Of a DNA stretch of 64,000 nt, positions 13,367-56,034 are shown one piece after another. A model generated the notes under the pieces. That model had not been told where the DNA came from, made no database searches, and saw nothing but the letters and a program-made list of their open reading frames with translations. The position numbers and the translations under genes are program-made. Position 1 is the first letter of the stretch. Each line of letters opens with the position of its first letter. This DNA is from Dehalococcoidia bacterium (GTDB lineage Bacteria; Chloroflexota; Dehalococcoidia; Dehalococcoidales; Fen-1064), in contig DUFD01000025.1 of assembly GCA_011171075.1 (NCBI GenBank), forward strand, positions 30,281-94,280. Direction: 5' to 3'.

Positions 13367-14354
13367 ATTGGCCCCCTGTCCACTTATCGTTGAAGAACTC
13401 TCTGTACCAGGCAATGGTCTCTATGAGTCCTTGCTCCGGACTGTAACGGGGTTCCCAACCAAGCACCTTTCTCGCCTTTTCTGCAGAGAGGTACTGGTGC
13501 TTTATCTCGTTCCTGGCCTCATTCTTTACGAGCGGGCGCAGGTCTTCTCTGCCCATGAGCCTCAGTATCTCATTCGTCAGTTCCAGAACGGTAAGCTGAA
13601 TCTCGTTAGAGAAATTGAATACTTCCCCGTATATGGGCAATTTTTCCATTCTTTCTGCCAGGAGTAGGTAGGCTTCAACCGCATCCAGGATATAGATATA
13701 GTCTCGAATGAGACTGCCGTCGCTTCTAATTACCGGTCGCTCGTTCAGGAGCACCATGCGAATCGTTCCGGGGACGATGCGATTGAAGTTAACGTCGCCG
13801 CCGCCGTAGAAGTTGCCGCACCTGGTGACGCATACGGGAAGCCCATAGGTGCGATGGTAGGACGTGGCCAGCAAGTCGGCACAGCTCTTGGATACATCAT
13901 AGGGGTGGGCGCCTCTAAGTGCCGCCTCCTCGGTATACGGCAGGATTTCATGCTCGCCGTAAGCCTTGTCGCTGGAGGCGACGATAATCCTTTCCACGGT
14001 AGGGCTCCGACGGCAGGCCTCCAGTATATTCCAGGTACCCCTGATATTGGTGTCAAAGGTCGATATCGGGTTCCGGTTGGCAATGGTGACGATGGTCTGC
14101 GCTGCTAGGTGGAAAACAGTATCTATTTCGTATTCATTCAGGATACGTTCCAGCAGGAAGTAGTTTTCCACCTCACCACGGACGGTAGCAATGCGGTCAC
14201 CCAGCCCCAGACGGCAGAAATTGGCCCGGGGTACATTGTCCCTTATCAGGCCAACGACATTTGCCTGCCGCTCCACCAGTGCCTGGGTTAGCCAGGAGCC
14301 GAGAAAGCCGGTACAGCCCGTAACCAGTACATTTTTATCCTGCCAAACTTCCAT
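13320..14354 (-). CDS. rfbG: CDP-glucose 4,6-dehydratase (extended SDR)
   Basis: Rossmann motif [14 protein letters not shown] and catalytic YDVSK. It is adjacent to rfbF. Confidence 0.8.
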
Positions 14355-19338: not shown

Positions 19339-19387
19339 AGCAGAACCCCATGCAACAATATCGTGACCACGCAACTCACCTCATATA

Positions 19388-20929
19388 TCAGGCCCTTTTC
19401 ATCTGCATAATTATTCCGCGCATCTCTCCCGCCAGTATTTTCATATCGCGGAACGATAAATAGTCCCGGTAAAACAACCCGATTACGAAGCCCCATACGA
19501 CAACCTGGGCTGCTAATGATATCCCGGTGAAGGTCCAAACGTTAGAAATCGCTGAGTCGAGGTAGCTGTGGATGAAGTAGAATGGGACTGTTATTGCGAA
19601 AGGTACCAGGATTCTAGTGACAAACCTGACGAACTCATTAGTATCCGTGAAAATGTAACTCCTGATAAAACGATACAACAGGAGTGTCACCAGGCCTTGC
19701 GTGCAGATAGTTACCCAGGCAACGCCGACCACGCCGTACCCGAGGTTGATTACGAGAATATTGAAGGCTATATTTAATGCCAGGCCGATTGAGTAAAGCA
19801 GTAAGAAGACGCTCTGCTTATTTATTATGCTCGAGGTCAGGATAACTGCCGGAATTATAGAGGCGGAAGCAAGATACAGATTGTACGAGAGTACGTGAAA
19901 TATGGGTATGCTGCTGGCATATTGGGTAGTTATCAGGCTGGCTATCAGATAAAAAACAACTTGTGAAACAGGGACAAGGATAGCGGTACCAAGGGTTATA
20001 TAGATGGCTATTCGTTTCAGGTCTTTAAAGCCTTCGTAGATGCTCTCAGCCTTTCCCGCTTCCTTCCATAAGACCGGTTGAAGTACGTTGCCAAACTCGA
20101 CGGGGATGTTGAACACCAGCATGATAAATCCCATAGCATATACGTAAAATCCCAGCTGGTCGAGGGGGAGTGTTGAGGCTATAATTGTTCTATCCGCCAG
20201 TCGAAATCCCCAGTATACCAGCGTCCCTGCCTGAAGGACGACGCCAAATTTCACCAGCCTGTGGGTTTCTTTCCAGTCCAGTCGGAAACGGAATTCGATT
20301 GGCCCTTTTCGCCAGTAATAAATACCCATAGCTATGGCCGCTCCTATCGGTGCAATTAACAATGCATAGACCTTCAGCCAGTGTATGCAGGCCAACGTTA
20401 GCAGCGGTATCGCGATGCCGGCGATGAGCCTCCCCTTGGCGGCTACATTGAAGTTCTGCCTCAGGAAGTTTACGCCCGCCCAGTAATTTACAAAACGGTT
20501 GGTGATAAAGCTGACTGCCACGATAATCAGGCCGAATTTCAGGAGTGGTTCTGAGTAAAAGAAGGAGACCCCGAGGAGGACAGCAAACGGCAATATTGAA
20601 TACAGTATGTCTGAAGTAATGGAGATATTCTGTATTCTCAGCGCTTCTTTTTCCTCACCCTTTCCTAGGAGTACCGGCACTTCTCTGAAGCCAGCGCTGG
20701 TAAGCCCCAGACCCACAAAACCGGCATACATCAGCCACAACCCCAGGAAACCATACGTCCCGTATTCCTCCGGCGCCAGTATGGTCGCCACGTATATGGT
20801 TACCAGCATTGACATAAGTGCATAAACAATCTGCACCGAACTGAATTTCAGAGAGTTTTTAGCTATATTTATGATGCTTATTGCCATTTGACTATCAGAA
20901 TCCTGCCCAAGGTTGTTTAAGTCATACAA
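19388..20929 (-). CDS. wzx: Wzx-type polysaccharide flippase (MOP/PST superfamily)
   Basis: 513 aa with about 12-14 hydrophobic helices seen by eye. The position within the glycan operon supports the call. Confidence 0.7.
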   Translation of the reverse strand: MYDLNNLGQDSDSQMAISIINIAKNSLKFSSVQIVYALMSMLVTIYVATILAPEEYGTYGFLGLWLMYAGFVGLGLTSAGFREVPVLLGKGEEKEALRIQNISITSDILYSILPFAVLLGVSFFYSEPLLKFGLIIVAVSFITNRFVNYWAGVNFLRQNFNVAAKGRLIAGIAIPLLTLACIHWLKVYALLIAPIGAAIAMGIYYWRKGPIEFRFRLDWKETHRLVKFGVVLQAGTLVYWGFRLADRTIIASTLPLDQLGFYVYAMGFIMLVFNIPVEFGNVLQPVLWKEAGKAESIYEGFKDLKRIAIYITLGTAILVPVSQVVFYLIASLITTQYASSIPIFHVLSYNLYLASASIIPAVILTSSIINKQSVFLLLYSIGLALNIAFNILVINLGYGVVGVAWVTICTQGLVTLLLYRFIRSYIFTDTNEFVRFVTRILVPFAITVPFYFIHSYLDSAISNVWTFTGISLAAQVVVWGFVIGLFYRDYLSFRDMKILAGEMRGIIMQMKRA

Positions 20930-20950: not shown

Positions 20951-21997
20951 CTACAGCTTACCGGCAATTACTCTAATACATGTTCCTTCGCTTCCATATT
21001 GAAAATCATCTGATGATAGGAACTTAAATACATTCTGAGTAGAGAAGAGTTTCCCATATAATTTTTTGAGATACTCCTTCGGAGGTGATTCCGGAAACAG
21101 GTTTGAAGTAATTCTAGATATCCTGTTTAGCCTGCCGTCAGCAGGTTCTTGTTTCCCTCCATTGCGAGTGCTCTTAATATATTCTTCCCACCATTCGGAG
21201 TGTTTTTGGCTGCAGCAGCCCATGAATCTTAGATTGAGTCCGGATTTCTCCAGCGCAGTCCTGAGGCTCGTTTCGTTGAAGAAGGAAAGGTGGGGAGCGT
21301 CATTATACCGCATGTTTCGGCGAGTGATCAGGTCAGAGTTTGGCACCTCACATAAGAATATCCCGTCATCAGTAAGAAGAGTCTGAATGTACTGCAAAAC
21401 AGGAATAATCTCATCACCGTTGTAGTGCTCTAGGAGATGCGACATCAGGATGAAATCAAACCTTTGCGAACCGAAAACCGGGCCTGAATACCGGTCAAAA
21501 TATATAGGGTACAGTTGTACGCCAAGAGACTTCAGAGTTGGATGGGAGAATTGGTCGGGTTCAACCGCAAAAAGGCGCATCTTTGGCAGGAGTTTCCGGG
21601 CAATCCAAAATGATATGCCTCTTCCGCAACCGATATCTAATAGGGTATCGTTTTCTTTAAATTCCTTAAAGGATTTTGCCAGTAAGATTTGTGAAATAGG
21701 TCTCGGTTCGAGCGAAAAATCGCTGTAATTGCTTACTGTGTTTCTGACGTGGTAGGCAGAGTGGGTGTCTCTATAGACATCTGAGTAAAATTTATCCAGC
21801 CTTGTTTTATCAATAGATGGAAGTGCCCAGCCAAAACCGCATCTTTTGCAAACGTGTATTTTAAGGTCCGAAAAGATGTCCTGGGCCACCTCGTTAGTAG
21901 CGAACTCATAATTCATATATTCGATGGAAAAGCTTACATCCTTTTCAGATGAGCAAATCGGGCAAAAGGAATTCTCATTACCCATAAGAATTAGCAT
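20951..21997 (-). CDS. SAM-dependent methyltransferase with N-terminal Cys4 zinc ribbon
   Basis: CPICSS...CKRCGF ribbon, motif I LLDIGCGRGISF and FDFILMSHLLEH. Confidence 0.8.
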   Translation of the reverse strand: MLILMGNENSFCPICSSEKDVSFSIEYMNYEFATNEVAQDIFSDLKIHVCKRCGFGWALPSIDKTRLDKFYSDVYRDTHSAYHVRNTVSNYSDFSLEPRPISQILLAKSFKEFKENDTLLDIGCGRGISFWIARKLLPKMRLFAVEPDQFSHPTLKSLGVQLYPIYFDRYSGPVFGSQRFDFILMSHLLEHYNGDEIIPVLQYIQTLLTDDGIFLCEVPNSDLITRRNMRYNDAPHLSFFNETSLRTALEKSGLNLRFMGCCSQKHSEWWEEYIKSTRNGGKQEPADGRLNRISRITSNLFPESPPKEYLKKLYGKLFSTQNVFKFLSSDDFQYGSEGTCIRVIAGKL

Positions 21998-22034: not shown

Positions 22035-24047
22035 TCAGCGTTTGTCATTTATCATTTTAAGAATAATGTCGGCAATGTTCTGTGTGGCCCTGCCATCAAT
22101 CGGTCCGGCGCAGCGGCTGACGAATTCCCTCCGGCTTTCAGTTAATTTAGTTCGCTGCGAGTCGTTCGCTAAGACCTCTAGAATTACTGGAACAAGCTCC
22201 TCTTTTCTTTCTACCTTGAAAGCCGCCCCCTCCTGGGCATAGGGGACTACTTCGGGTCTGCCGGTGGGGTTGTAGATCACGACGTCTTTATTGAAAATCA
22301 TGGCTTCCAGAGCACTGGATGAACTGTGGGTCAGTAAAATGTCCGCTGCTGGGAGTTGGTGAATCAGAGGGATGTCCGAATACAGGATATTGCCCTGTCG
22401 TGCATCTCGAACAACCTGCCTGATATCCTCGGGATGTCTATCGCCGGGATGGGGACGGACGATGAGATAAAGTTGAGGAAGAGCGGCTACCCCCTCGATT
22501 ACGTCCTTCAGGTGTTGTATTATCTCGTCTCTAGTCTGCACTATGTAAGGGTGCCGGGTCTCCCGATTGCTGTGGTCCAGAGCGTATAAGATGACTTTCT
22601 TATCCGGCGGAATCCCCAGGTGGCGGCGTATGGAACCGTTGGAATGGTCGGCTACGCTCCGGTAATCATCAAAATCACTACAGGAAGCGACCTCCACCCT
22701 ATCCAGGGGTGTTCCCCAGATGGTAAACCAATCCTTCGAGGCATCGCCCCAGGCCTCTATCTTGTCGGCGACTGGAGGTACCAGCACCTTCCCGAAAGCC
22801 TCCGAGGCTTCAGGAGTGAAATAATCAACGCCGTGATGGAGTACCAGGGTTTTCTTGCCCCGGTTTTGAAGTGTTCTCATCATGGTACGTACTACCGGGT
22901 CTGCATCTGAAGGTGAGACAAGGACGTCAAGTCCTGTTCTGGTAATCATCTCTTTGATGAGCTCCATGCCGCGGACAACCAGGGGCAGGTATATATCGAG
23001 AATATACTCCAGTTCCTTTCTGGCAACTGCCCAGAAATTAAAACCGTTGTAGCAGAATGTATTTTCCAGATAGCTCACCACCTTGGCCTGGTTTATAATG
23101 TCACGGAAAACGGCTCTTTTCGCCTCGATGAGACGGTTAATCTCTGTGGTGCTGAAGGATTCCAAATATAGCTGTGGTAGGAAGCTCATCATGCGTCGCT
23201 TTTCACCTGGTCCTGCTAGGCAGACTAGACCGTTGTCGGCATCTTTTTTTAAATAGTCGGCGATATTTACCGCGCAGCGTAGCTCCGTAAAGGCTATTTT
23301 GCGTTTTTTCCGGGAAAACCTTCTTGCGGGACGGTGGGCGGTCCACGAGCAAAAACAGAAATTCCGTAATCGCTGCAGGTCACGCCGAATCTCCCGTGGT
23401 AAATTGCCGGAGAAAAATGTCCCTTTATAATTTGCCAATGTCTTTGTGGCAAAATTCAGCACCCGTCGCCGGAGTGGTGCGGAAAGGGCGACCTTTCCCG
23501 TCAGGTATTTTCGGCTCAAGTGTATTGGGTGAGTCCACTCTAGAGAGACGCCCTTTTCGCGAGATAGAGAGCTGACGATGAAGCTGTCCTGTCGTCCCAT
23601 ACAGGTAATGCTGATTGTCTCTGCCTCGGACGCCGGTCTTTTCGTAATAACAACCTTGTCAGGCCTTTCCGTCTCAAAGATACCCTTGTATAGCTCAACA
23701 TCCAGGAAGAACCCGGCAAAAGCCAACCTCAGATAGTATTCCATCGTCTCGCAGAGTGAAACCCCTTCGTGATTGAGGGCCTTTTCAAGCACTGGTTGTC
23801 TGTACCACTCTTTGGCTAGTCTGGTAGACTCGGTATAAGCCCGGTAATGCCTTTCTCTGGTGAGGTAGTCGATGGTGGTCTTGAAAGGTATACCTTGTTG
23901 CTGGCAGGCCCTCTGAGCACTGTATTCGGTGGCAATCACCACCGCCTGACAGTCCGGTCTCTGGTCATAGTCCCGGATTTTGTCCAGTTGAGACAGTACC
24001 TCCGTGTCTGCTGAACAGATAAATGCAATTTTCTTCGTTGCTGCCAT
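22035..24047 (-). CDS. Hypothetical 670-aa protein; the C-terminal half resembles a GT-B/TagF-like transferase domain
   Basis: Long ORF in operon context. C-terminal pattern KKVILYALDH...LIVRPHPGD...ADILLTHSSSSALEAMIFNKDVVIYN. No confident family call could be made. Confidence 0.5.
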   Translation of the reverse strand: MAATKKIAFICSADTEVLSQLDKIRDYDQRPDCQAVVIATEYSAQRACQQQGIPFKTTIDYLTRERHYRAYTESTRLAKEWYRQPVLEKALNHEGVSLCETMEYYLRLAFAGFFLDVELYKGIFETERPDKVVITKRPASEAETISITCMGRQDSFIVSSLSREKGVSLEWTHPIHLSRKYLTGKVALSAPLRRRVLNFATKTLANYKGTFFSGNLPREIRRDLQRLRNFCFCSWTAHRPARRFSRKKRKIAFTELRCAVNIADYLKKDADNGLVCLAGPGEKRRMMSFLPQLYLESFSTTEINRLIEAKRAVFRDIINQAKVVSYLENTFCYNGFNFWAVARKELEYILDIYLPLVVRGMELIKEMITRTGLDVLVSPSDADPVVRTMMRTLQNRGKKTLVLHHGVDYFTPEASEAFGKVLVPPVADKIEAWGDASKDWFTIWGTPLDRVEVASCSDFDDYRSVADHSNGSIRRHLGIPPDKKVILYALDHSNRETRHPYIVQTRDEIIQHLKDVIEGVAALPQLYLIVRPHPGDRHPEDIRQVVRDARQGNILYSDIPLIHQLPAADILLTHSSSSALEAMIFNKDVVIYNPTGRPEVVPYAQEGAAFKVERKEELVPVILEVLANDSQRTKLTESRREFVSRCAGPIDGRATQNIADIILKMINDKR

Positions 24048-24084: not shown

Positions 24085-25032
24085 TTAAGTGGCTTTCTTG
24101 CCTAGAAAAACGGTAATATCTCCAAGATTATGGCTATTAAGAAGCGCCTTGTATTCTTTATCTACCTTCTTAATCCATTTATTGAATATGGCTCTTGTTT
24201 CATCGGGCACCTGGGGAGACCTGACCAAAACGGGGGCAGACATACCGTCGCTGGCACTGCTTTGTGGTTCTCCGGTCAGTATCCAGTTTATCTGGTTGAT
24301 GAAATTGTATTGCTGAAGTGTCTTTGTCTCCCCAATAAAACCGCTTTTCTCGACGACACCTCTCAGTGTTTCAGGCGAAAAATAGAAAAGGTGCGGCTCA
24401 CGATAGTAGAAGTCGGCGTATTCCTTCACTTCGTAAACGGTGAGCAATGAATCATCTATGTTGTCAACCTCGATATAGATATACCCCCCGGGTCTAATAT
24501 ACTTACGTACCGCCCCAAGATAATTAATCGGGTCTTCGATGTGTTCGAGTACATCGAGCATAAATACTATGTCGAAGTATTCCAGGGGTACGTCCGTCTT
24601 TTCCAGGGGGCGGTTATAGACTTTTACCCCACATTTCTTTCTGGCAAACTCGACGTCATCTTTATTTAGCTCGATACCGACGCACTCCTGAACCAGATCT
24701 TTCAGAGCGTATAGAAAGTAGCCTGAAGAGCAGCCAATGTCCAGGGCTTTCATGTCAGGGTTAAGATAGGGTCTAATATCTTCTATGCGGGACTTCTGAA
24801 AAGGAAGATATATCTCAAAACGTTCGGCCGGCGAGACTTCCTGGTTGATTACCGGACTGTAAAGTTTTCTGTAGTCCTTTTCGTAGTATTCTCTGAGATT
24901 TCTTTCTTTATTCTCTAGGAAGACAAGCCCGCATTCTGCGCACTTGAGAACATTGCGTTTGATGCCGTGTCTTAGCTTGGTCTGGATTATCTTCAGGTTA
25001 GACCTGCCGCATAAATAGCAAGTGTTTTCCAT
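24085..25032 (-). CDS. SAM-dependent methyltransferase with N-terminal Cys4 zinc ribbon
   Basis: CYLCGR...CAECGL ribbon, motif I ALDIGCSSGYF and FDIVFMLDVLEH. Confidence 0.8.
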   Translation of the reverse strand: MENTCYLCGRSNLKIIQTKLRHGIKRNVLKCAECGLVFLENKERNLREYYEKDYRKLYSPVINQEVSPAERFEIYLPFQKSRIEDIRPYLNPDMKALDIGCSSGYFLYALKDLVQECVGIELNKDDVEFARKKCGVKVYNRPLEKTDVPLEYFDIVFMLDVLEHIEDPINYLGAVRKYIRPGGYIYIEVDNIDDSLLTVYEVKEYADFYYREPHLFYFSPETLRGVVEKSGFIGETKTLQQYNFINQINWILTGEPQSSASDGMSAPVLVRSPQVPDETRAIFNKWIKKVDKEYKALLNSHNLGDITVFLGKKAT

Positions 25033-25131: not shown

Positions 25132-25791
25132 TTACTGTGTCTCCTTCTCCGCCCAGCTCAGCAGCATTACCTCTTTAGAGAATTTTATTAATTTGATATC
25201 TGACTTTGGGAAACAGGACAGCACTCTGGAAAAGATGCTTAACCACGGATATTTCCATAGAAGCGGCAGTTGTCTGAATTTCTTCACCTCCACCTTGGTA
25301 AAGCCAAATATATGATGAATATCGCGTAGTGATTCTTTGGTGAAGGGTGTCTTATGTGTATAGTCTTCGTAGAAAGTCCTGTAGACTGATTCCCAATCTG
25401 GCGTCATCGTAATCAAACGCCCTCCGGGTCTAAGAACGCGGTATACCTCTGTCATAAGGTTTTCAGGATTGTTCAAATGCTCAATCAATGATTTACTAAA
25501 CACGATGTCGAAGCTGCTGTCTTCGTAAGGTAGCCTTTCTTGATCAATATCTATAACGTCAACCTCTATATCTATTGATAGCTCCCTGGCTTCTTTTGAC
25601 AAATCAATTCCTCTAACCTGATACCCCAGCTTCTGAAATTCACGTAGGTGCTCCCCCCGCCCACACCCTATATCCAGTACTGTCTTATAACCACCACTAA
25701 AATAGTTATCGGCAATGTATTTACATAGTTTACCTGGATAAGAGGTATAGGGCCTTTGCTTTTCAGAATAGACTACGCGTAAATATCCCAC
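25132..25791 (-). CDS. Class I SAM-dependent methyltransferase
   Basis: Motif I VLDIGCGRGEH, FDIVFSKSLIEH and LRPGGRL. Confidence 0.85.
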   Translation of the reverse strand: MGYLRVVYSEKQRPYTSYPGKLCKYIADNYFSGGYKTVLDIGCGRGEHLREFQKLGYQVRGIDLSKEARELSIDIEVDVIDIDQERLPYEDSSFDIVFSKSLIEHLNNPENLMTEVYRVLRPGGRLITMTPDWESVYRTFYEDYTHKTPFTKESLRDIHHIFGFTKVEVKKFRQLPLLWKYPWLSIFSRVLSCFPKSDIKLIKFSKEVMLLSWAEKETQ

Positions 25792-25830: not shown

Positions 25831-26292
25831 TCAAAGCACCTCAACCAGTTCAATACGTGCTCCGTCAGGGTCGGCACAGAAGGTGACCTTGGCGTAGCCA
25901 TCGGGTGAAATATAAGGGGAACAATTAAAACTAACCCCGCTTTTTAACAGTCGTGCGTATTCCTTTTCAATGTTATCCACGGCAAAAGCGACGTGGGAGC
26001 AGCCGATGTCACAGAGCTGCTGGTTATCAGGCGCTTCGCTCGGGTGGGAGAGATATTGGAGGAGTTCAATCATGGAGCCGTCATCGGTGGTCAGCTTGAC
26101 CATGCGCACTCGCACGCCGGTCAACCCTGATATGCTATCGATATAGTCACCTTCCTCGCTGAAGTCCTTAACCACCTTCAGGCCCAGGAGGTCGCGATAA
26201 AACGTTAACGCCTTCACCATATCAGTGACCACGATTCCGGTGTGACGTATTCCGGTGAGCACTTTCTTTTTCCTTTCAGTCCAGGCATTCAT
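25831..26292 (-). CDS. VOC (glyoxalase/bleomycin-resistance/dioxygenase) family protein
   Basis: HTGIVVTDMVKALTFYRDLLGL...SHVAFAVDNI...DPDGARIELVE. The internal ATG at 26292 is preferred, giving a 17-nt overlap with the upstream gene. Confidence 0.7.
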   Translation of the reverse strand: MNAWTERKKKVLTGIRHTGIVVTDMVKALTFYRDLLGLKVVKDFSEEGDYIDSISGLTGVRVRMVKLTTDDGSMIELLQYLSHPSEAPDNQQLCDIGCSHVAFAVDNIEKEYARLLKSGVSFNCSPYISPDGYAKVTFCADPDGARIELVEVL

Positions 26293-27664
26293 CAATAGCT
26301 TCCTGCAAAACGGCCACACCCTCGATGACAGCCTCCTCGGGAATGCTTAGTGGCGGCCCAATCTTAAGCGTGCCGCGACCGGTACGGACCATCAGCAGAC
26401 CTTTCTGCATGGCCTTCTCCAGGACTCTGTCCGCAAGCTCTATATCCAACTCATCTGTCACCGGGTTCGCCAAGTGTACTGCGTAAAGAAGCCCTCTACC
26501 CAGTATGCAGTGTATTCGGTCTGGGTAACGCTGTTTAATATTCATCAGATGCGATTCTAGAATGCCTCCGGTTCTATTGGCTGCGGCTACCAGATTTTCC
26601 TTTTCGATTGCTTCGAGGTTGGCCAGGGCAGCCGCACAGCAGAGGGGATTTCCGCTGTGAGTGCTGCTCAGGTCAGGAGGGATGTCCAGTATTTCTGACC
26701 GGCCAAGCACTGCCGAAAGTGGCAGGCTTGAGGAAATGCCCTTACCACAGCAGACAAGGTCGGCCTCCACGCCATAGTGCTCGAAGCAGAATGGTTTGCC
26801 CGTCCGACCAAACCCCGCCTGGACCTCGTCAAATGTGACCAGAGCAAAGTGCGCATCAGCCCAGGCACGAAGCGCCCTGATATAGTCGTCCGGATAGAAT
26901 ATGGCGCCCCAGGCAAGATACGATTCAACCATGAACCCGGCTATCCGGTTGAGTTCGAGGCCTTGATTACGGAGTTGCTCCAGGCCTCTCTGAAAGCACC
27001 ACTCCCCGCACTCTTTATAGCGTTCTCTACCCCAGGGACACCTCTGGCAAAAAGGAGCAGTAAGCTGGTATATATCGGGGTCGAGATGGACAATCCACTC
27101 TTTGGCGGTTGGGTTTCCGCTCATTGTCTGCGCCCCGATGGTTCGTCCGTGAAACGAACCGTCGAAGGAGACGATGACAGTCTTGTCGGGGTCGAGCCGC
27201 CGTCCATACATACGGGTCAACTTCAACGCGCATTCGGTGGCTTCACTCCCTGTCGAGAGAAGAAAGGCTTTTTCCAGTGGTGGAGGGCTGCTTTCAACCA
27301 GCTTCCGGGCCAACCGGGCGCGAATCTCCGATGCGAAAGTGTAGTTATGGAGGAGCCGGTGGTTTATCTGTTCCGCCAGGGCGTGGCGAATCAGATGGTG
27401 CGCGTGCCCGGCATTGGCGACGAAAATGCCCGAGGTGAAATCTATCCAGCAGTTACCGTAGGCGTCAAACACCTGATGTCCCTCGGCCCGGTCCCATACC
27501 ACGGGCAGCTCGTGGTGCAGTGACTCCGGTTCGTAGCGTTCCAGTTCTTTCAGAGTCGGTATTGAACCCGGGGCTGGAAGTGGGGTTACGATTCGCCGGT
27601 GGCGCGTTTCCACCCGCGGTACACCCACTGGCTCAAGACTGAACGTATATTTTGTCATTTTCAA
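26276..27664 (-). CDS. Class-III (ornithine/GABA-type) PLP aminotransferase
   Basis: DFTSGIFVANAGHAH, SGSEATECALK and FDEVQAGFGRTG are hallmark class-III motifs. Confidence 0.8.
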   Translation of the reverse strand: MKMTKYTFSLEPVGVPRVETRHRRIVTPLPAPGSIPTLKELERYEPESLHHELPVVWDRAEGHQVFDAYGNCWIDFTSGIFVANAGHAHHLIRHALAEQINHRLLHNYTFASEIRARLARKLVESSPPPLEKAFLLSTGSEATECALKLTRMYGRRLDPDKTVIVSFDGSFHGRTIGAQTMSGNPTAKEWIVHLDPDIYQLTAPFCQRCPWGRERYKECGEWCFQRGLEQLRNQGLELNRIAGFMVESYLAWGAIFYPDDYIRALRAWADAHFALVTFDEVQAGFGRTGKPFCFEHYGVEADLVCCGKGISSSLPLSAVLGRSEILDIPPDLSSTHSGNPLCCAAALANLEAIEKENLVAAANRTGGILESHLMNIKQRYPDRIHCILGRGLLYAVHLANPVTDELDIELADRVLEKAMQKGLLMVRTGRGTLKIGPPLSIPEEAVIEGVAVLQEAIDECLD

Positions 27665-28403
27665 TATCTCTCGCCGGAAAATTGCATTTTAGATATTCAT
27701 ATACCGGGTTCTTCTGTTTGCTCAGGGTATATTCGATGAAATCGAAGTCTTCAGGGCGGTCCAGTTCCCCGACATCCGGTGTAATAAAGGAGAGTATTCT
27801 CGGGCCGTGTAAAGTCCCCAGATTCGTTACGGTCTGGCTCTTTACAATGTCCACGTACCCATTGGGATGATAGACCGGCGGGAAGGCCTGCCGGGGCAGA
27901 TTATAGTATTCGGGTCTCGGGTCGTCGGGAAACAGCCCCACGTAATAGTCGTTTTCGATACCAAAGAGTTTGTAGGGGGACTCTGCGGTCTCACAGGCAG
28001 AGCGGAGGGATGTTGCCTCCTCGTTCCGCATTATCTTGTCAATCGCCTCATCAATGAGGGCTGGGTCTCGTAACGGTGTCGGTGGTGAGAGGATAACGAG
28101 GTATTCCGGTTGGGCCCCTTCGTGAGTCTGGAACCAGCCGAGAGCGTGCTTGACATATTCTATGTCGAGTGAGCTATCTCGTGAGATTTCGGTGGGGCGG
28201 AGGAAAGGGACTTCTGCCCCATAGGTAAGGGCTATTTCGGCAAATTCCTGAGAATCGGTCGAGACTATCGTCCTTTCGATTCTCGAGGACAGTCTTGAAG
28301 CGATTATTGAGTAGGCAATCAGCGGATAGCCCGCTAAGGGTTTGATATTCTTCGCGGGGACCCCTCTACTGCCACTCCTTGCCGGTATCAGGCTAATAAT
28401 CAT
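27633..28403 (-). CDS. Acylneuraminate/ulosonate cytidylyltransferase (NeuA/CMP-sugar synthetase family)
   Basis: The N-terminal signature IISLIPARSGSRGVPAKNIKPLAGYPLIAYSI is typical of CMP-NeuAc/CMP-Kdo-type synthetases. Confidence 0.8.
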   Translation of the reverse strand: MIISLIPARSGSRGVPAKNIKPLAGYPLIAYSIIASRLSSRIERTIVSTDSQEFAEIALTYGAEVPFLRPTEISRDSSLDIEYVKHALGWFQTHEGAQPEYLVILSPPTPLRDPALIDEAIDKIMRNEEATSLRSACETAESPYKLFGIENDYYVGLFPDDPRPEYYNLPRQAFPPVYHPNGYVDIVKSQTVTNLGTLHGPRILSFITPDVGELDRPEDFDFIEYTLSKQKNPVYEYLKCNFPARDIENDKIYVQS

Positions 28404-28467
28404 TGCTCAGCCCTCCAAGAACCTTGAAGACCCGGTAGCTCATCTGGTTTAATATAGTCCGTCCTCG

Positions 28468-29304
28468 CTACCAACCTGTAGGCACCCCCCAGAACTCACA
28501 AGACTGGCACAGGCGCACTTTATTTCTCTGCCCCTGGATGTGGTGTTGCAAGTATGATTTCCTTAATTCGCCATTCCAGATATCTTCCAGAGGTGTGGTG
28601 TTGGCATCACCGATAATTCCATATTTGTGGGGGTCAAATCTGACGCACATGGCAACGCTGCCGTCTCTCTTGATAACCATGTGGCTCAGAAGGTCAAGGC
28701 ATATTCCCAGTTCAGGTACCGTGGGGGATTTCTTGTAGGCAAAGCTACCCATCGGTGAGTGTAATATTCTGGTAGCAATGATGCATCCCAACTCCTTGTA
28801 CCTGACCAGGTCCACGTCGCCGAGGCACCTGATGATTACGTTCGGCCTGCGGTTACGTTTATATGCCAGGAACTCCTTTAGCAGGCTGTATTGCTCGTCG
28901 GCTTCGGGGTCAGCCTCGAAGGTGGATATGGTTATCGTGTCCAGATTGTCTATAATCTCATCGGCTTTTGCTATTAGCAATTTACCGTTCGTGTCCACGC
29001 ACTTAATCTGCCGGTCGAATAACTTCACGGCTTCGCCAAATCGGGGGTAGAGCAAAGGTTCTCCATTATCGTGAAATTGAACGACCATATCCGGGGGTAA
29101 CTGCCTGGCTATTGATTCCACCAAACCCCAGTCCATATCGCCCCAATTGGCTAGTTCAGGGTAGTCCCTCTCTATTTTGCGTCGGCCGCACATCCAGCAG
29201 TTCTTGTTGCACCGACTGGTCAATTCTATATTGACCACTCCCAGGCCATTGAACCCCATTTGTTTCTCCAGTTTTCTATCGGTATCAGGGCAGTAGACTG
29301 TCAT
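28468..29304 (-). CDS. Radical SAM enzyme (possible SPASM-like C-terminal Cys cluster)
   Basis: CX3CX2C motif in ELTSRCNKNCWMCGRR. Further Cys residues near the C-terminus (AMCVRF...LCQSCEFWG). Confidence 0.75.
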   Translation of the reverse strand: MTVYCPDTDRKLEKQMGFNGLGVVNIELTSRCNKNCWMCGRRKIERDYPELANWGDMDWGLVESIARQLPPDMVVQFHDNGEPLLYPRFGEAVKLFDRQIKCVDTNGKLLIAKADEIIDNLDTITISTFEADPEADEQYSLLKEFLAYKRNRRPNVIIRCLGDVDLVRYKELGCIIATRILHSPMGSFAYKKSPTVPELGICLDLLSHMVIKRDGSVAMCVRFDPHKYGIIGDANTTPLEDIWNGELRKSYLQHHIQGQRNKVRLCQSCEFWGVPTGW

Positions 29305-29309
29305 TTTAT

Positions 29310-30176
29310 TCAGGCTGTTGCGTACTCTCTGAAGTATCTTAATTTGGCGGCATTAGCCTCTTCTTCCGCGGTGACTCTCTTGATACCATCGCCGAGTAGC
29401 TTCGGGAGACTCTTGGCGTTATCTACCAGCAGACTGAGTCCTCTGGCTTCGAGGGAGGCCGCCTGGTCACTACCGTACATTGCCCTGTCGAGCGTTATGT
29501 GCCGCTCGATAGCTACTGCGCCCAGCGCGGCGGCTACAATAGATGGCATGGGGCTTACCTCATGCCCGCTGTAACCGACATCACATTTGTAGCGCTCTCT
29601 CAGGGCCTGGATGCATAACAGGTTGAGGTCCTCCTCCCTGGCGGGATACGTCCCCTGACAGTGCATCAGGGTAAAGGGGCACTCATGCTCCCTGAAGATA
29701 TCTACCGCTTTATCAACGTCGTCGTAGGTGCTCATGCCGGTTGATATGAATGTATGCTTGCGCTCCTCGGCAACAACGTTCAGCAGGGGGATATTCGTCA
29801 GCATTGGTGAGGCTATCTTGTTGTATTTGCAGTTGTACTGTCTGATAAACATCTGGCTTTCTACATCCCATGATGAGGCAAACCAGTCGATTCCACGCTG
29901 TCGGCAATGTTCGTCAATGATATCGTATTCCTCTTTGCCGAATTCTAAAGCCTCTTTCTGCGCCCTCTGGGTTGTTCCCCACGGGCTCTCCCTCGGGGAG
30001 TCCAGTAGCTCTTCTGAATAAACAATGTCTACCGTCCTTTTCTGAAACTTGACGGCATCACACCCGCAGTCCTTGGCCATGTCAATAAGCTTTCTAGCTA
30101 TATTGACCACCCCGTTGTGATTGATGCCTATCTCCGCGATGATAAAAGGAATATTGTTTTTGTCCACTACGTCCAC
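29310..30176 (-). CDS. NeuB-family PEP-condensing ulosonate synthase, short form without SAF domain
   Basis: FIIAEIGINHNG...DAVKFQ...GYSGH...ERHITLD matches the NeuB TIM barrel. It is 288 aa, against about 345 aa for NeuB/PseI/LegI. Confidence 0.8.
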   Translation of the reverse strand: MDVVDKNNIPFIIAEIGINHNGVVNIARKLIDMAKDCGCDAVKFQKRTVDIVYSEELLDSPRESPWGTTQRAQKEALEFGKEEYDIIDEHCRQRGIDWFASSWDVESQMFIRQYNCKYNKIASPMLTNIPLLNVVAEERKHTFISTGMSTYDDVDKAVDIFREHECPFTLMHCQGTYPAREEDLNLLCIQALRERYKCDVGYSGHEVSPMPSIVAAALGAVAIERHITLDRAMYGSDQAASLEARGLSLLVDNAKSLPKLLGDGIKRVTAEEEANAAKLRYFREYATA

Positions 30177-30192
30177 ACCCCTTTCCCGGATT

Positions 30193-30831
30193 TTAGTATT
30201 GTTCCGACGGCACGCTGCACTTGCCGAATAGTTCTTTCTCCACCAGATAGCAGATAATGTGGCCCATCATGATGTGCGATTCCTGGATTCGAGGCACCTC
30301 GGTTGAGGGGACAGCCAGTAGATAGTCGACATTTTCTGCCAGTTTCCCGCCTGTAGCTCCGGTAAAAGCTACGGTTATCCCGCCCTGTCGTCTGGCTTCT
30401 TCAATACCTCGAATTACATTTTGCGAGTCGCCACTGGTGCTGATGCCGATGACGACATCACCGGGCTTGACCGATGCCTCGACCTGACGGGCAAAGACCT
30501 CGCTGAAATCATAATCATTGGCAATCGCCGTTAATTCGGACGTATTGGTGGTCAGGGCCAGCGATTCCAGAGCCTTTCTTCTGAGATAAAACTTACTGAC
30601 CAGCTCACAGGACAGGTGTTGGGCATCAGCGGCACTCCCTCCGTTGCCGAACCAGAGAACCTTGTTGCCCTTTCGGTAAACACGAATTATCTCCTCCGCA
30701 ATTTGCGCCATGGTTTTCGGGCAGGTTTCTATTAACTGCTTCTTTACAGAGATACAGTCTTCAATATGTTGCAGTATGTCCTCTTCCATCGAGGTCTGGT
30801 TTATTACCCGTTTCATGCCATCTGGGCTCAT
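30193..30831 (-). CDS. SIS-domain sugar-phosphate isomerase (GmhA/PtmF-like)
   Basis: GNGGSAADAQHLSCELV...ISTSGDS...ESHIMMGH matches the GmhA-type SIS fold. The start is uncertain (30831, 30816 or 30789). Confidence 0.75.
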   Translation of the reverse strand: MSPDGMKRVINQTSMEEDILQHIEDCISVKKQLIETCPKTMAQIAEEIIRVYRKGNKVLWFGNGGSAADAQHLSCELVSKFYLRRKALESLALTTNTSELTAIANDYDFSEVFARQVEASVKPGDVVIGISTSGDSQNVIRGIEEARRQGGITVAFTGATGGKLAENVDYLLAVPSTEVPRIQESHIMMGHIICYLVEKELFGKCSVPSEQY

Positions 30832-33183: not shown

Positions 33184-33636
33184 ATGAAGGCTTTATTCCA
33201 TAAGCACCAGTCCGGCTATATCCTTTCCGTTGTTCTCTTGGGAGCGGTACTGGGGGTTACGGGTGTGTTGGGCTACTCGCTGACTACCTTCTACGGAGGG
33301 GAGTCGTTTACCGAGTTTTATATCCTGGGAGTTAGTGGCAATACTGAAGAATACCCGACAGAGATCAGGGTTGGTGAGGAGGCGCAGGTAATTGTCGGAA
33401 TCATAAACCACGAAGGGGAACAGCAGAGCTATCAGGCGGAGGTCAGGATAAACGGCGTATTCAAGAACAGCGTTGGCCCTATTGCGCTGGCAAACGAAAA
33501 GGGTTGGGAAGGTATGCTTGGTTTCATATCGGATAGCGTGGGAAATAACCAGAAAGTGGAATTCTTGCTGTTTAAGGGAGAGGAGACCGAATCCTGTCTG
33601 GAGCCACTCCGCCTGTGGGTTAATGTGAGGGAATAG
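33184..33636 (+). CDS. Small single-pass membrane protein with extracytoplasmic beta-rich domain (DUF1616-like)
   Basis: An N-terminal TM helix is followed by FTEFYILG...EEYP...VIVGIINHEGEQQSYQAEV. The family call is from memory. Confidence 0.5.
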   Translation: MKALFHKHQSGYILSVVLLGAVLGVTGVLGYSLTTFYGGESFTEFYILGVSGNTEEYPTEIRVGEEAQVIVGIINHEGEQQSYQAEVRINGVFKNSVGPIALANEKGWEGMLGFISDSVGNNQKVEFLLFKGEETESCLEPLRLWVNVRE

Positions 33637-33959: not shown

Positions 33960-35654
33960 ATGGCCCCTAAAGATTTCAAGTGCCTGCTCGTAGCCGATTT
34001 TACTATTGATGGTTTTGCAGGCTATTTGAAAAACGATGAAGACTTCCCCACGGTTGAAAGCATTGTGGCTCCGTTCGACCAGGTGGTTCAGGTGCTGATG
34101 GACGGTGACCTGGAGTGCTGGAAGAGTAAGCCTGATTTTGCCGTGGTCTGGACTCGCCCCGAGAGTATTATCAGGTCTTTTAATCAGGTACTCGATTATG
34201 AGGCCGTGCCGATGGCGCAGATTCTTAAGGAAGTGGATGAGTACGCTTCACTCCTGGCGATGATGAGCGGTAGAGTGAAATCAGTGCTTGTGCCGACATG
34301 GGTTTCTCCACCGTACCACAGGGGCCTGGGGATGCTCGACCTGAAGACAGGCATCGGGGTAGCCAGTACCCTGATGCGGATGAACCTGAGGCTTGCGGAG
34401 AATTTCGATGAATCGTCTAACATATATTTGCTGGATACTCAGAGGTGGGTAAGTGTCGCCGGAAAGCACGCCTTTAACCCGAAGCTATGGTACATGGGTA
34501 AGGTTGCCTTTGGTAGCGACGTTTTCAAAGAAGGCGTCAGGGATGTGAAGTCGGCTCTGAGCGGTATAGTTGGCGGTTCCAAAAAACTGATAATCCTCGA
34601 CCTCGATGATACCCTCTGGGGTGGGGTTGTCGGCGACGTCGGCTGGGAAGGTATCAGGTTGGGTGGACATGATCATCTCGGTGAGGCATACGTTGATTTC
34701 CAGCGTGCCCTGAAATCACTGACAAAACGCGGCATCCTGCTGGGGATAGTTAGCAAGAACGAGGAGGCGGTAGCAATCGAGGCGATAACCAGTCACCCGG
34801 AGATGGTCCTCCGGCTGGATGACTTTGCTGGCTGGAGGATTAACTGGCAGGACAAGGCCCTGAATATCGTTGACCTGGTCTCGGAATTAAACCTCGGCCT
34901 GCAGTCGGTAGTATTTATTGATGACAACCCGGTGGAAAGGGCACGGGTCAGAGAGGCGTTGAGCGAAGTTTTCGTGCCGGAGTGGCCCGAAGACAAGATG
35001 CTTTACCGGAGTACGCTGCTTGGCCTGCGTGTATTTGATACTCCTTCTATCAGTGAGGAGGATGCCGGGAGAACGAAGATGTATGTACTGGAGCGGCAGC
35101 GTAGCGACCTGAAGAAGACGGTTGGCTCCCTGGATGAGTGGCTAAGGAGCCTGGACACAAAAATACAGGTGGAGGAGTTGAATAAGGCCAATCTGCAGCG
35201 GGCTGCCCAGTTATTGAACAAGACCAACCAGATGAATCTCACGACAAGAAGAATGACCGAGTTGGAAATGGCAGACTGGGCCCGGCAGGACAATCATAAA
35301 CTATGGACTTTTCGGGTATCGGACAATTTCGGGGATTCGGGACTGACCGGCATAATTAGTCTGGAATTCGAAGGTAAGGTTGGGAGGATTGTGGACTTTG
35401 TGCTGAGCTGCCGGGTCATGGGGCGTAAAGTCGAGGAGACGATGCTCTATACGGCAATCAAAGGTGCAAAATCTCAGCACCTGGATAGGATATACGCAAA
35501 TTATATCCCGACCTTCAGGAATAAGCCGTGCCTGGATTTCTGGAAGACATCAGGATTTTCTTATAACGGCACAGATAGCTGTTTTTCCTGGGAGCTATGT
35601 GATGAGTACGCCTTGCCCGACTGTATAAAAATCGAGGGTGAGAAGGAAGCGTGA
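33960..35654 (+). CDS. FkbH-like HAD-IIIC phosphatase/acyl-ACP loader
   Basis: The HAD motif I context LIILDLDDTLWGGVVGD...GILLGIVSKNEE...VFIDDNP is typical of the FkbH family. Confidence 0.8.
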   Translation: MAPKDFKCLLVADFTIDGFAGYLKNDEDFPTVESIVAPFDQVVQVLMDGDLECWKSKPDFAVVWTRPESIIRSFNQVLDYEAVPMAQILKEVDEYASLLAMMSGRVKSVLVPTWVSPPYHRGLGMLDLKTGIGVASTLMRMNLRLAENFDESSNIYLLDTQRWVSVAGKHAFNPKLWYMGKVAFGSDVFKEGVRDVKSALSGIVGGSKKLIILDLDDTLWGGVVGDVGWEGIRLGGHDHLGEAYVDFQRALKSLTKRGILLGIVSKNEEAVAIEAITSHPEMVLRLDDFAGWRINWQDKALNIVDLVSELNLGLQSVVFIDDNPVERARVREALSEVFVPEWPEDKMLYRSTLLGLRVFDTPSISEEDAGRTKMYVLERQRSDLKKTVGSLDEWLRSLDTKIQVEELNKANLQRAAQLLNKTNQMNLTTRRMTELEMADWARQDNHKLWTFRVSDNFGDSGLTGIISLEFEGKVGRIVDFVLSCRVMGRKVEETMLYTAIKGAKSQHLDRIYANYIPTFRNKPCLDFWKTSGFSYNGTDSCFSWELCDEYALPDCIKIEGEKEA

Positions 35655-35657
35655 CCT

Positions 35658-36083
35658 GTGGCTGCTGAGCGCTCACGGAGAATCAAGCGGTTACACTTCT
35701 TCGGGGAAAAGGCGCGCTTTCATCATATCGGCCTTGCTGTGAAGTCTATCAGAGATGTGAGCCCGTCGAGTGAAGTAATCGTGGATTCCGTTCAAAAGGT
35801 CTCTCTTGCCTTTGTCTCGGTCGGCGGGATTAAAATCGAGTTTCTTGAGCCGTCGGGTGAGGACTCCCCGGTGTTCGAGAGCCTGAAGAAAAACGTGAAG
35901 CTCCTTCACATCTGTTACTCGGTCCCCGATATCGAAAAAGCCATACAAGAATGCCGGAAACATGGTTTCCATTGCATTGCCCGACCGGTACCGGCTGTGG
36001 CGTTCAACAACCGTAAAATCGCCTGGGTTTATAGTCCGGTATACGGGCTGATTGAGCTACTGGAGAGTCCTGGAAAGCCATAA
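35658..36083 (+). CDS. VOC-family, methylmalonyl-CoA-epimerase-like protein
   Basis: GTG start. FHHIGLAV...IEFLEP...LLHICYSVPDI...GLIELLE matches the epimerase-type VOC pattern. Confidence 0.7.
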   Translation: MAAERSRRIKRLHFFGEKARFHHIGLAVKSIRDVSPSSEVIVDSVQKVSLAFVSVGGIKIEFLEPSGEDSPVFESLKKNVKLLHICYSVPDIEKAIQECRKHGFHCIARPVPAVAFNNRKIAWVYSPVYGLIELLESPGKP

Positions 36084-36091
36084 CAGTTGAG

Positions 36092-50681: not shown

Positions 50682-50698
50682 CGGTTAGTTTACCTTTA

Positions 50699-52039: not shown

Positions 52040-52077
52040 GTTTCAATGCCTCTGTCCCGTTTTACCCTGGAAAATTA

Positions 52078-55258: not shown

Positions 55259-55288
55259 ATCCTTCGAATTCTAGTTGAACCTGTCGGG

Positions 55289-55981: not shown

Positions 55982-56034
55982 GTCTTTCTCTTCCTTAATG
56001 TGATTGCTCAGGTATGCTACTCATTCTAAGGGCT

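Follow-up and report, generated by a model that had tools for sequence, protein, structure and literature searches.

A radical SAM-containing gene cassette of a Dehalococcoidia bacterium, proposed to make a CMP-activated, aminated ulosonic acid

The DNA analysed here, called the window throughout, is a 64-kb stretch (64,000 nucleotides) of a metagenome-assembled genome of a Dehalococcoidia bacterium (assembly GCA_011171075.1, contig DUFD01000025.1, positions 30,281 to 94,280). Six open reading frames (ORFs), all on the minus strand, follow one another head-to-tail between positions 25831 and 30831. In gene order they encode a SIS_2 protein (SIS; 30193–30831, 212 amino acids; Pfam SIS_2, E-value 2.5e-27), a NeuB-like synthase without a SAF domain (29310–30176, 288 amino acids; Pfam NeuB, 1.1e-66), a radical S-adenosylmethionine (SAM) enzyme (rSAM; 28468–29304, ORF of 278 amino acids; Pfam Radical_SAM and SPASM), a cytidylyltransferase (CMPt; 27633–28403, 256 amino acids; Pfam CTP_transf_3, PF02348, 2.9e-17), a class-III aminotransferase (AT3; 26276–27664, 462 amino acids; Pfam Aminotran_3, PF00202, 3.9e-83), and a VOC protein (25831–26319, ORF of 162 amino acids; Pfam Glyoxalase/VOC, PF00903, 5.5e-17). 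The intergenic gaps are 16, 5, 64, −32, and −44 bp, the second of which is measured from the ORF start of the rSAM gene and becomes 50 bp if translation begins at M16. The coordinates, gaps, and domains agree with an earlier note, made from the letters of this DNA alone, that had described six co-directional, nearly abutting genes. That note ended the unit at 25831, and this limit has to be moved, as the adjacent gene for a 219-amino-acid class-I SAM methyltransferase (MT; 25132–25791, minus strand; Pfam Methyltransf_11, 6.7e-24) belongs to the unit, which therefore has at least seven genes. A scan of 19.0–31.3 kb for promoters and terminators gave counts no higher than those of shuffled controls, and no terminator-like site was found on the minus strand between 25.1 and 30.8 kb. 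Each of the six block proteins scores below the curated cut-off of its best NCBIfam model, so none attains the cut-off of a characterised family. The domain E-values, together with synteny kept in dozens of unrelated genomes, exclude a chance assembly of genes. We consider it somewhat more likely than not that the block is an operon for a cytidine monophosphate (CMP)-activated, aminated, and probably methylated 3-deoxy-2-ulosonic acid of a cell-surface glycan.

The block is conserved as a cassette. A profile scan with the rSAM enzyme, in which each species was represented by one genome, gave 80 loci; these represent more than 15 phyla and belong almost exclusively to anaerobic lineages. The carriers include Dehalococcoidia, Omnitrophota, Planctomycetota (including Scalindua), Elusimicrobiota, Nitrospirota, Desulfobacterota, Lentisphaerota, Saccharibacteria, other bacteria of the Candidate Phyla Radiation (CPR), Woesearchaeota, DPANN-type archaea, and further groups; a single locus, that of Desulfobacter curvatus DSM 3379 (L059), belongs to a cultured strain, and its cassette is of the kind with a short-chain dehydrogenase/reductase. 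According to tblastn searches with the window proteins, the NeuB-like gene is near the rSAM gene in 68 of the 80 loci, CMPt in 65, VOC in 38, AT3 in 30, the 219-amino-acid MT in 29, and SIS in 16. Almost all of the loci without a NeuB-like gene are contigs that end beside the rSAM gene. The order NeuB-CMPt-AT3-VOC-MT-rSAM recurs in Omnitrophota, Nitrospirota, Elusimicrobiota, Desulfobacterota, Planctomycetota, Lentisphaerota, Actinomycetota, and Saccharibacteria, and the MT homologues, which are 39–52% identical to the window protein, lie between VOC and rSAM in 29/80 loci. The closest locus (L006, Dehalococcoidaceae) has the gene order of the window, including SIS, at 75–84% identity. The unusual and diagnostic partner in the cassette is the small twitch rSAM enzyme, which is almost always beside a SAF-less NeuB. 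No description of the cassette was found in full-text literature searches.

Two further features of the rSAM loci were recorded. In some loci the twitch rSAM gene or the NeuB-like gene is present twice. Furthermore, B12-binding (class B) rSAM proteins of about 490 amino acids are encoded near the cassette in approximately 38 of the 80 loci (for example L007, L011, L012, L045, and L047); the window has no such gene, and these proteins could add C-methyl groups in other lineages.

The NeuB-like synthase matches 241 of the 241 positions of the PF03102 profile with its residues 30–266. The protein ends at residue 288, has no match to PF08666 (SAF), and aligns to positions 1–274 of the 329-position NeuB model, which agrees with its earlier description as a NeuB homologue of 288 amino acids that stops before the SAF domain. 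The scores of 238 bits against TIGR03569 (NeuB_NnaB, which covers NeuB and LegI; cut-off 399.65) and 180 bits against TIGR03586 (PseI; cut-off 340.25) are both below the cut-offs. The SAF domain of NeuB contributes R314 to the binding of the N-acetyl sugar acceptor, and the protein from the window, having no SAF domain, is without this residue. Its closest solved relative (PDB: 6ncs) has 290 amino acids and is SAF-less too. Relatives of 280–300 amino acids with 65–95% identity number in the thousands and occur in Chloroflexota, Chlamydiota, archaea, and other groups. About 30% of nonulosonic acid synthase sequences have no SAF domain, and SAF-less NeuB homologues have been recorded phylogenetically, without a function (PMC8208679). 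The absence of the domain is thus real but no rarity, and the large SAF-less family was already on record.

The residues that bind phosphoenolpyruvate (PEP) and metal are retained. The equivalents of E25, K53, Q55, K129, S132, S154, Y186, S213, H215, E234, H236, and D247 are kept in at least 186 of 193 members of the clade, and the same motifs are present in the alignments to 6ncs and to PseI (PDB: 8h2c). The clade-specific substitutions are E134M, F112W, and N184S. Position 134 is occupied by methionine in the window protein and in 163 of the 193 clade members, by glutamate in PseI, and by aspartate in 6ncs. This residue is near the expected place of the phosphate of N-acetylmannosamine-6-phosphate (ManNAc-6-P), and the eukaryotic, phosphosugar-using synthase NANS differs there (PMC8208679). 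Six basic residues (K46, R47, R62, K74, R231, and R280) are invariant in the clade and not present in Neisseria meningitidis NeuB, the reference sequence of which reproduces the result of the comparison with the PDB. The window protein is 36% identical to human NANS (171 bits) and 29% identical to N. meningitidis NeuB (112 bits); the NANS sequence used is unconfirmed, and this likeness, which includes the region of the beta2-alpha2 loop, is a lead only.

The SIS protein has a single SIS domain and is approximately 50% identical to GmhA from Burkholderia pseudomallei (PDB: 2xbl; E-value 8e-49). The motifs AQH..E, IQE.H..GH, and STSG are kept in the alignment; we take the conserved H, E, Q, and H to be the four Zn ligands of GmhA and STSG to be its phosphate motif. 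The protein reaches 192.8 bits against the phosphoheptose isomerase model PRK13936 (cut-off 276) and 176.5 bits against TIGR00441 (gmhA; cut-off 209.45). Both models are near misses, and the substrate is one that we infer. Of the label GmhA/PtmF-like that the protein had been given, the first half is borne out by the alignment and the Zn ligands, and the second is a poor analogy. A PtmF-type role, amino-sugar formation with a glutaminase, was ruled out because there is no glutaminase partner and the protein is GmhA-like with Zn ligands. In the loci inspected, no heptose kinase, GmhB, or heptose nucleotidyltransferase accompanies SIS, which makes a role in a nucleoside diphosphate (NDP)-heptose pathway unlikely.

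An independent scan of metagenome contigs anchored on the NeuB-like gene provided 80 further loci, many of them marine, 40 of which have enough flank for comparison. The SIS gene is within 300 bp of the NeuB-like gene in 15 of these 80 loci and within 6 kb in 22 of the 40; in the rSAM set it is within 50 bp in 8 of the 80 loci. SIS is among the commonest neighbours of SAF-less NeuB across environments. Being a GmhA look-alike with Zn ligands and a frequent immediate neighbour of SAF-less NeuB, it probably supplies the NeuB-like synthase with an aldose-phosphate acceptor.

Another recurrent neighbour is a protein of about 100 amino acids from the HAD family (mini-HAD), encoded after the SAF-less NeuB in loci L001–L005, L087, L088, L115, L133, L142, L152, and L160. 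It contains the motifs CFDIDGT (DxDGT), YTxRG, and GKP..YIDDK, and its nearest named relatives are the capsule phosphatases EcbF/BcbF and the PDB entry 9iqw. The change at position 134, the clade-invariant basic residues, the NANS likeness as a lead, and the mini-HAD or GmhA-like neighbours indicate that the acceptor of the NeuB-like synthase is probably a sugar phosphate. Together, the evidence favours D-glycero-D-manno-heptose-7-phosphate, from which a ten-carbon (C10) acid would be formed.

The same logic can be built on nine carbons (C9), a reading that we regard as unlikely. In it, the NeuB-like enzyme would condense PEP with mannose-6-phosphate or another hexose phosphate into a Kdn-9-phosphate-type acid, which would then be oxidised, aminated, and methylated, and SIS would either produce that hexose phosphate or meet a demand of the glycan for heptose that is separate from this acid. 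Animal NANS and the Kdn-9-phosphate synthase of Bacteroides condense PEP with hexose phosphates. The NANS-like motifs, the greater closeness of the window protein to NANS than to NeuB (in the comparison with an unconfirmed NANS reference), and a CMPt that is NeuA/PseF-like and not KdsB-like fit such a product, and the absence of SIS from most rSAM loci is easily explained if the acceptor is a universal metabolite. The properties of SIS speak for heptose instead: the protein is about 50% identical to a bona fide GmhA with Zn ligands, is unlike phosphomannose and phosphoglucose isomerases, and is encoded directly beside the NeuB-like synthase without NDP-heptose genes. In addition, SIS adjacency in the rSAM set is enriched in lineages without lipopolysaccharide (LPS), with 7/17 loci as against 3/63 in the others (Fisher p = 5e-4), as would be expected of an acceptor that LPS producers form in any case. 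The cassette resembles the NANS/NANP and Bacteroides Kdn-9-phosphate routes in that related loci place a small HAD phosphatase right after the synthase, as would suit a phosphosugar that is condensed and then dephosphorylated. In contrast to the window protein, NANS has an antifreeze-like/SAF domain and an aspartate at position 134. The window cassette also differs from these routes in having no phosphatase and a GmhA-like isomerase, which would provide a heptose phosphate and not ManNAc-6-P or mannose-6-phosphate.

The rSAM homologues have 263–276 amino acids. As this tight family has a typical length of about 263–266 amino acids, the window protein starts at M16 (position 29259), which gives 263 amino acids (28468–29259). 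Cysteines 17, 21, and 24 (CX3CX2C) and cysteines 187, 205, 251, and 254 are invariant in 21 homologues, the latter four being a C-terminal set suited to one auxiliary [4Fe-4S] cluster. The top PDB sequence match is BtrN, with a profile E-value of 1.7e-10 and similarity in both the N- and C-terminal parts; no NCBIfam radical SAM model exceeds 53 bits. An AlphaFold model of the enzyme has a pLDDT of 72 and a pTM of 0.73, and its best Foldseek matches are DesII and the twitch rSAM dehydrogenase SpeY (for SpeY, E-value 2.7e-7 and TM-score 0.46–0.50), with sactisynthases and the rSAM epimerase EpeE scoring on a par with them. A search of 1.84 billion representative proteins with the rSAM profile gave only 69 matches at E ≤ 1e-30, in keeping with a tight family. 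One of its members (P0248, 518 amino acids) combines an N-terminus that looks GIY-YIG-like by eye with a full twitch rSAM; it appears low in GC and may be a mobile or viral copy or a gene-calling artefact. Gene fusions were considered as a clue to the order of the reactions, and the sole long rSAM fusion, P0248 with its GIY-YIG nuclease-like part, was uninformative.

Clustering of the ORFs within 8 kb of the rSAM gene showed that the slot after CMPt is filled by one of three enzymes. AT3 is present in approximately 30 loci, 29 of which have VOC. A class-IV aminotransferase, similar to branched-chain aminotransferases, is present in about 21 loci, and VOC is absent from the 20 of these that have no AT3. 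A KduD-like short-chain dehydrogenase/reductase (SDR) occupies the slot in about 16 loci, 7 of them with VOC. AT3, which the earlier note had listed as a pathway partner, is indeed present in the window but is not a fixed feature of the cassette. An aminotransferase can take the place of a reductase only where each has a carbonyl to act on, which suggests that a carbonyl intermediate precedes the amination or reduction. The similarity of the rSAM enzyme to BtrN and SpeY, combined with the interchangeable enzymes in the downstream slot, makes it the candidate producer of this carbonyl, as an anaerobic hydroxyl-to-carbonyl oxidase.

In the NeuB-anchored loci with enough flank, twitch rSAM was found in 1/40 and SDRs in 28/40. 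The rSAM-free loci with AT3 and VOC (L120, L137, and L161) all carry SDRs, so the rSAM enzyme may stand in for a dehydrogenase dependent on nicotinamide adenine dinucleotide (NAD). The simplest reading is that it does this job without O2 or NAD, and in anaerobes it would hold the position that SDRs have in the rSAM-free relatives. BtrN and NeoA, a radical SAM enzyme and an NAD-dependent dehydrogenase, respectively, do the same job in different aminoglycoside pathways.

The arrangement resembles the pathways of BtrN/BtrS (butirosin), SpeY (spectinomycin), and DesII/DesV/DesVI (desosamine), in which a sugar or cyclitol is converted into a ketone by a short rSAM enzyme that bears an auxiliary Fe-S cluster, and an aminotransferase acts next. 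The products of BtrN and DesII are transaminated in the following step; in the DesII pathway, DesVI goes on to N-methylate the amine. With its rSAM enzyme, aminotransferase, and methyltransferase, the window parallels the desosamine logic. However, the similarity is remote (E-value about 1e-10, TM-score about 0.5), and BtrN, SpeY, and DesII, which come from antibiotic biosynthesis in Bacillus and Streptomyces, act on aminocyclitols or TDP-hexoses and not on ulosonic acids. The aminotransferases of the BtrN and DesII pathways are DegT-type, whereas that of the window belongs to class III.

Alternatively, the rSAM enzyme could be a radical eliminase that catalyses a dehydration or the loss of the terminal phosphate, leaving a deoxy-keto terminus, as in pseudaminic (Pse) and legionaminic (Leg) acids, that is then aminated or reduced; or it could be an epimerase. 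We consider this doubtful. DesII, a deaminase or dehydrogenase acting on a keto-sugar, is a top fold match, and EpeE was matched as well. Moreover, loci with rSAM and SDR and without an aminotransferase resemble the dehydratase-reductase pair AprD4/AprD3. The mini-HAD of rSAM-free loci is absent from the window and from 80/80 rSAM loci, as might be expected if radical elimination removed the phosphate. Nevertheless, it is present in only 6 of the 40 rSAM-free loci, and mutual exclusion of mini-HAD and rSAM is therefore weak and was kept only as part of this alternative. The four auxiliary-cluster cysteines and BtrN as the top sequence match fit best with the dehydrogenase subclass, and oxidation of a hydroxyl to a carbonyl is the activity that we prefer.

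The remaining proteins of the cassette would activate and tailor the acid. CMPt scores 119 bits against the PseF model (E-value 2e-34; cut-off 205.7), and its matches to KdsB models are far weaker (E-values 1e-5 to 2e-10). Its closest solved relatives are NeuA structures (PDB: 9ftb and 6ifd), and it carries the N-terminal P-loop-like motif PARSGSRGVPAKN. CMPt is thus predicted to be a NeuA/PseF-like CMP-ulosonic acid synthetase. AT3 attains no equivalog cut-off in NCBIfam and matches PF00202 across its full length; it is closest, among solved structures, to gamma-aminobutyric acid transaminases and archaeal class-III racemases and displays the motif DEVQAGFGRTG and a GKG lysine motif. The carbonyl made by the rSAM enzyme would be its substrate for amination. 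The VOC protein is approximately 143–153 amino acids long within its ORF and is similar to glyoxalase I and methylmalonyl-CoA epimerase. H26 and H109 are kept in at least 95% of 37 family members; residues at about E85 and E157, which we take to be the remaining metal ligands, appear conserved too, this reading of the alignment columns being approximate. VOC is tied to AT3 and does not occur with the class-IV aminotransferase on its own. Speculatively, it could be an epimerase or ketol-aldol isomerase acting beside the carbonyl, for which methylmalonyl-CoA epimerase and 2-epi-5-epi-valiolone epimerases are analogues. The closest solved relatives of the 219-amino-acid MT include the amine N-methyltransferases phosphoethanolamine N-methyltransferase and MitM, a weak indication that it may N- (or O-) methylate the product.

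The cassette and the NeuB/LegI/PseI and NeuA/LegF/PseF systems share a PEP-condensing TIM barrel with metal ligands H215 and H236 and the PEP residues, an adjoining CTP_transf_3 gene, and a surface-glycan context. The cassette synthase differs from NeuB, LegI, and PseI in the absence of SAF, in E134M, F112W, and N184S, and in scoring below both equivalog cut-offs. The routes to N-acetylneuraminic acid (Neu5Ac), Leg, and Pse use a dehydratase, a DegT aminotransferase, an acetyltransferase, and a 2-epimerase, none of which was detected in the block by Pfam scans, as had been noted before; tailoring in the cassette would be by rSAM, AT3, and VOC instead. Within the larger ORFs of the whole window, Pfam detected no acetyltransferase and no full match to a hydrolysing 2-epimerase of the NeuC/PseG/LegG type. 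The sole Epimerase_2 match is sub-threshold (20.7 bits, with 30.6 required) and falls in the C-terminal part of a 670-amino-acid protein encoded downstream of the block.

A CDP-hexose module is located 10–17 kb downstream of the block. It consists of a glucose-1-phosphate cytidylyltransferase, which is above its equivalog cut-off, a CDP-glucose-4,6-dehydratase-like SDR (4,6-dehydratase-type; 13320–14354), a 3,5-epimerase-like protein, and two DegT aminotransferases (10844–11971 and 15170–16291). The dehydratase and DegT genes were considered as a hidden legionaminic-type front end. This was ruled out, since they accompany the glucose-1-phosphate cytidylyltransferase and are thus part of CDP-hexose synthesis. 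With these genes assigned to another pathway, and no full 2-epimerase match and no acetyltransferase among the scanned ORFs, the classical Neu5Ac/Leg/Pse front end is absent from the window.

It is very improbable that the cassette belongs to an ordinary Neu5Ac, Leg, or Pse pathway whose early genes are elsewhere in the genome, with rSAM, AT3, VOC, and MT only decorating a standard sugar. All of those pathways do rely on NeuB and NeuA homologues for their late steps, and the gene content was read from the 64-kb window and not from the whole contig. Decorations at the level of the CMP-sugar are known (bioRxiv 10.64898/2026.04.20.719630). However, the NeuB-like synthase, with its sub-cut-off scores, missing SAF domain and R314, and substitutions E134M and F112W, does not look like the enzyme of such a pathway. 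Furthermore, many phyla have the cassette as a compact, self-contained unit, Pfam gave no full 2-epimerase match and no acetyltransferase among the window ORFs that were scanned, and the dehydratase and DegT proteins of the window belong to the CDP-glucose module.

The proposed pathway can be set out as follows. The GmhA-like SIS protein would convert a ketose phosphate into an aldose phosphate, likeliest sedoheptulose-7-phosphate into D-glycero-D-manno-heptose-7-phosphate. The NANS-like, SAF-less NeuB enzyme would then condense PEP with this aldose phosphate, if it is indeed the acceptor, to give a phospho-ulosonic acid. The phosphate may be removed by an enzyme from outside the cassette or lost in the rSAM step. 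In a reaction like those of BtrN and SpeY on the precursors of aminoglycosides, the twitch rSAM enzyme would turn one hydroxyl into a carbonyl with no need for O2 or NAD, and the VOC metalloenzyme might epimerise or isomerise the sugar beside that carbonyl. AT3 would convert the carbonyl into an amine, and the adjacent MT would methylate the product. Activation by the NeuA/PseF-like CMPt could take place before or after this tailoring, and the CMP-sugar would be used by the products of the downstream transferase and flippase genes. The cassette is modular: other lineages have the class-IV aminotransferase or an SDR in place of AT3, and the rSAM-free relatives carry SDRs.

The order of events is like that described for the Kdo8N pathway of Shewanella (KdnB and KdnA), in which a hydroxyl of the ulosonic acid is oxidised and transaminated before CMP activation. 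The oxidant in the cassette is a twitch rSAM enzyme and not one of the Fe-dependent alcohol dehydrogenase type, of which Pfam found no domain among the scanned ORFs of the window, and the aminotransferase is of class III. In addition, relative to the Kdo8N set (KdsA, KdsC, KdnB, KdnA, and KdsB), the synthase is from the NeuB family instead of KdsA and CMPt is NeuA-like instead of KdsB.

Several points weigh against the proposed pathway. The chemistry of every step is deduced from the genes and from comparison. If the acceptor is phosphorylated, the cassette has a gap, as it includes no phosphatase gene. E134, one of the possible catalytic residues of NeuB, is methionine in the window protein, and the condensation chemistry or the substrate may differ more than supposed. 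The fold match of the rSAM enzyme is modest (TM-score about 0.5 for a model with a pLDDT of 72), and epimerisations, thioether formation, and dehydrations are further reactions of twitch/SPASM enzymes. Only 16/80 rSAM loci contain SIS, and its role could be accessory. The SDR profile matches in the metagenome loci are generic, and the function given to VOC is speculation. Nonetheless, a non-canonical route to a CMP-sugar, with a different acceptor and amination after the condensation, as the earlier note had suggested, fits all of the computed data, and neither of the two findings that the note named as fatal to it, characterised orthologues for all of the genes or a loss of the PEP and metal residues, was made. 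The rearrangement that had been offered beside amination does not fare as well, since the swaps in the slot point to a carbonyl.

The fullest version of the pathway is tentative and, taken as a whole, somewhat improbable. In it, heptose-7-phosphate and PEP would give a 3-deoxy-dec-2-ulosonic acid phosphate, which rSAM and the aminotransferase would turn into an amino, N-methylated C10 sugar that is CMP-activated and displayed on the surface of many uncultured anaerobic bacteria and archaea. C10 ulosonic sugars do exist, as CMP-activated C10 ulosonic acids were observed by mass spectrometry in Magnetospirillum gryphiswaldense, with no genes assigned (SugarBase, bioRxiv 10.64898/2026.04.20.719630). 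They are CMP-linked alpha-keto acids with a backbone of more than nine carbons, as a heptose-phosphate-using NeuB would produce. The Magnetospirillum acids carry two N-acetyl groups, like Pse and Leg acids, and no link to the cassette is made. If the C10 reading is true, the cassette would contain the genes so far lacking for ulosonic acids of higher carbon number, and these acids would join Kdo (C8) and the nonulosonic acids (C9) as a new type of backbone. Its twitch rSAM enzymes, a family not recognised before, would then catalyse the first radical SAM step in the biosynthesis of ulosonic acids.

No single described pathway combines the NeuB/NeuA late steps, the phosphosugar logic, and the oxidise-then-transaminate logic. 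The SAF-less NeuB family was already known; what is new is a genomically well-defined rSAM family in a probable ulosonic acid cassette. Sialic-acid-like sugars cap surface glycans and govern recognition by phages, predators, and immune systems. To our knowledge, all described routes to them begin at NDP-HexNAc or ManNAc, and the cassette indicates a second, widespread route that would start from a sugar phosphate and be tailored after the condensation. We know of essentially no description of the surface chemistry of the groups that carry it, among them Dehalococcoidia, Omnitrophota, anammox Scalindua, CPR, and DPANN-type archaea. The cassette offers a gene set to compare with the unassigned CMP-linked keto acids, including C10 acids, now emerging from mass spectrometry, and would offer new enzymes for the synthesis of non-natural sialic acid analogues.

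The cassette is part of a single large surface-glycan locus that spans 1–37 kb of the window. Downstream of the block, on the same strand and identified by Pfam and NCBIfam, are a methyltransferase (24085–25032), a 670-amino-acid GT-B-like candidate transferase (22035–24047), a second methyltransferase (20951–21997), and a Wzx-type flippase (19388–20929). Methyltransferases of the type encoded at 20951–21997 and 24085–25032 recur in 36 of the 80 rSAM loci. The 670-amino-acid protein matches the models of the BFO_1060-family glycosyltransferase and of a "surface carbohydrate biosynthesis protein", both below cut-off. It was considered as the conserved transferase for the sugar and rejected, as it has almost no homologues in the other loci and is unrelated to the recurrent 399-amino-acid family F14. 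The next gene (17227–19374, minus strand) encodes a methyltransferase/kinase-like fusion of 715 amino acids, which consists of a Trm112-like zinc ribbon, a methyltransferase, and an APH-type kinase. Further genes downstream of the block on this strand encode GT2 and GT4 transferases and an asparagine-synthase-like amidotransferase, in addition to the CDP-hexose module.

These surroundings bear on the possibility that the product is not a glycan component at all and is instead a small molecule, either free or CMP-linked (a cofactor, an osmolyte, or an antibiotic-like keto acid, for example), formed from a non-sugar aldehyde. The sugar-phosphate acceptor is a prediction, and small-molecule metabolism commonly employs class-III aminotransferases and VOC proteins. 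Against this, in the window and in most related loci the cassette is surrounded by NDP-sugar genes, glycosyltransferases, and flippases or ABC exporters, and it is often accompanied by a GmhA-like isomerase or a capsule-type phosphatase. We judge a non-glycan product to be the least probable of the readings, with hardly any likelihood.

Other genes of the glycan locus may relate to the structure of the polymer. At least nine class-I methyltransferase genes between 769 and 25791, among them that of the fusion with an APH-type kinase, suggest a very heavily methylated, possibly phosphorylated surface glycan. DUF2206 (a 717-amino-acid membrane protein, 4603–6756) and DUF1616 (33184–33636), both mostly archaeal families, are encoded in the locus and may be polymerase- or oligosaccharyltransferase-like. 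A divergent unit on the plus strand (33960–37234) contains an FkbH-domain protein (TIGR01686, 275 bits, above cut-off), a second VOC protein that is similar to methylmalonyl-CoA epimerase (35658–36083), and a 380-amino-acid protein without a family match. FkbH domains make glyceryl-carrier intermediates, and an amino sugar could receive a glyceroyl-type acyl group through this unit, comparable to that of N-glyceroyl pseudaminic acids.

Two gene groups are located outside the glycan locus. Three adjoining genes at 44035–49778 are for trehalose synthesis and encode two TreT-type synthases and one fused OtsA-OtsB. The genes at 49836–56658 on the minus strand encode a corrinoid methyl-transfer system with a pterin-binding methyltransferase, two URO-D/MtaA-like proteins, a RACo-type reductive activase with a 2Fe-2S domain, and a B12-binding corrinoid protein, a set typical of anaerobic demethylation metabolism.

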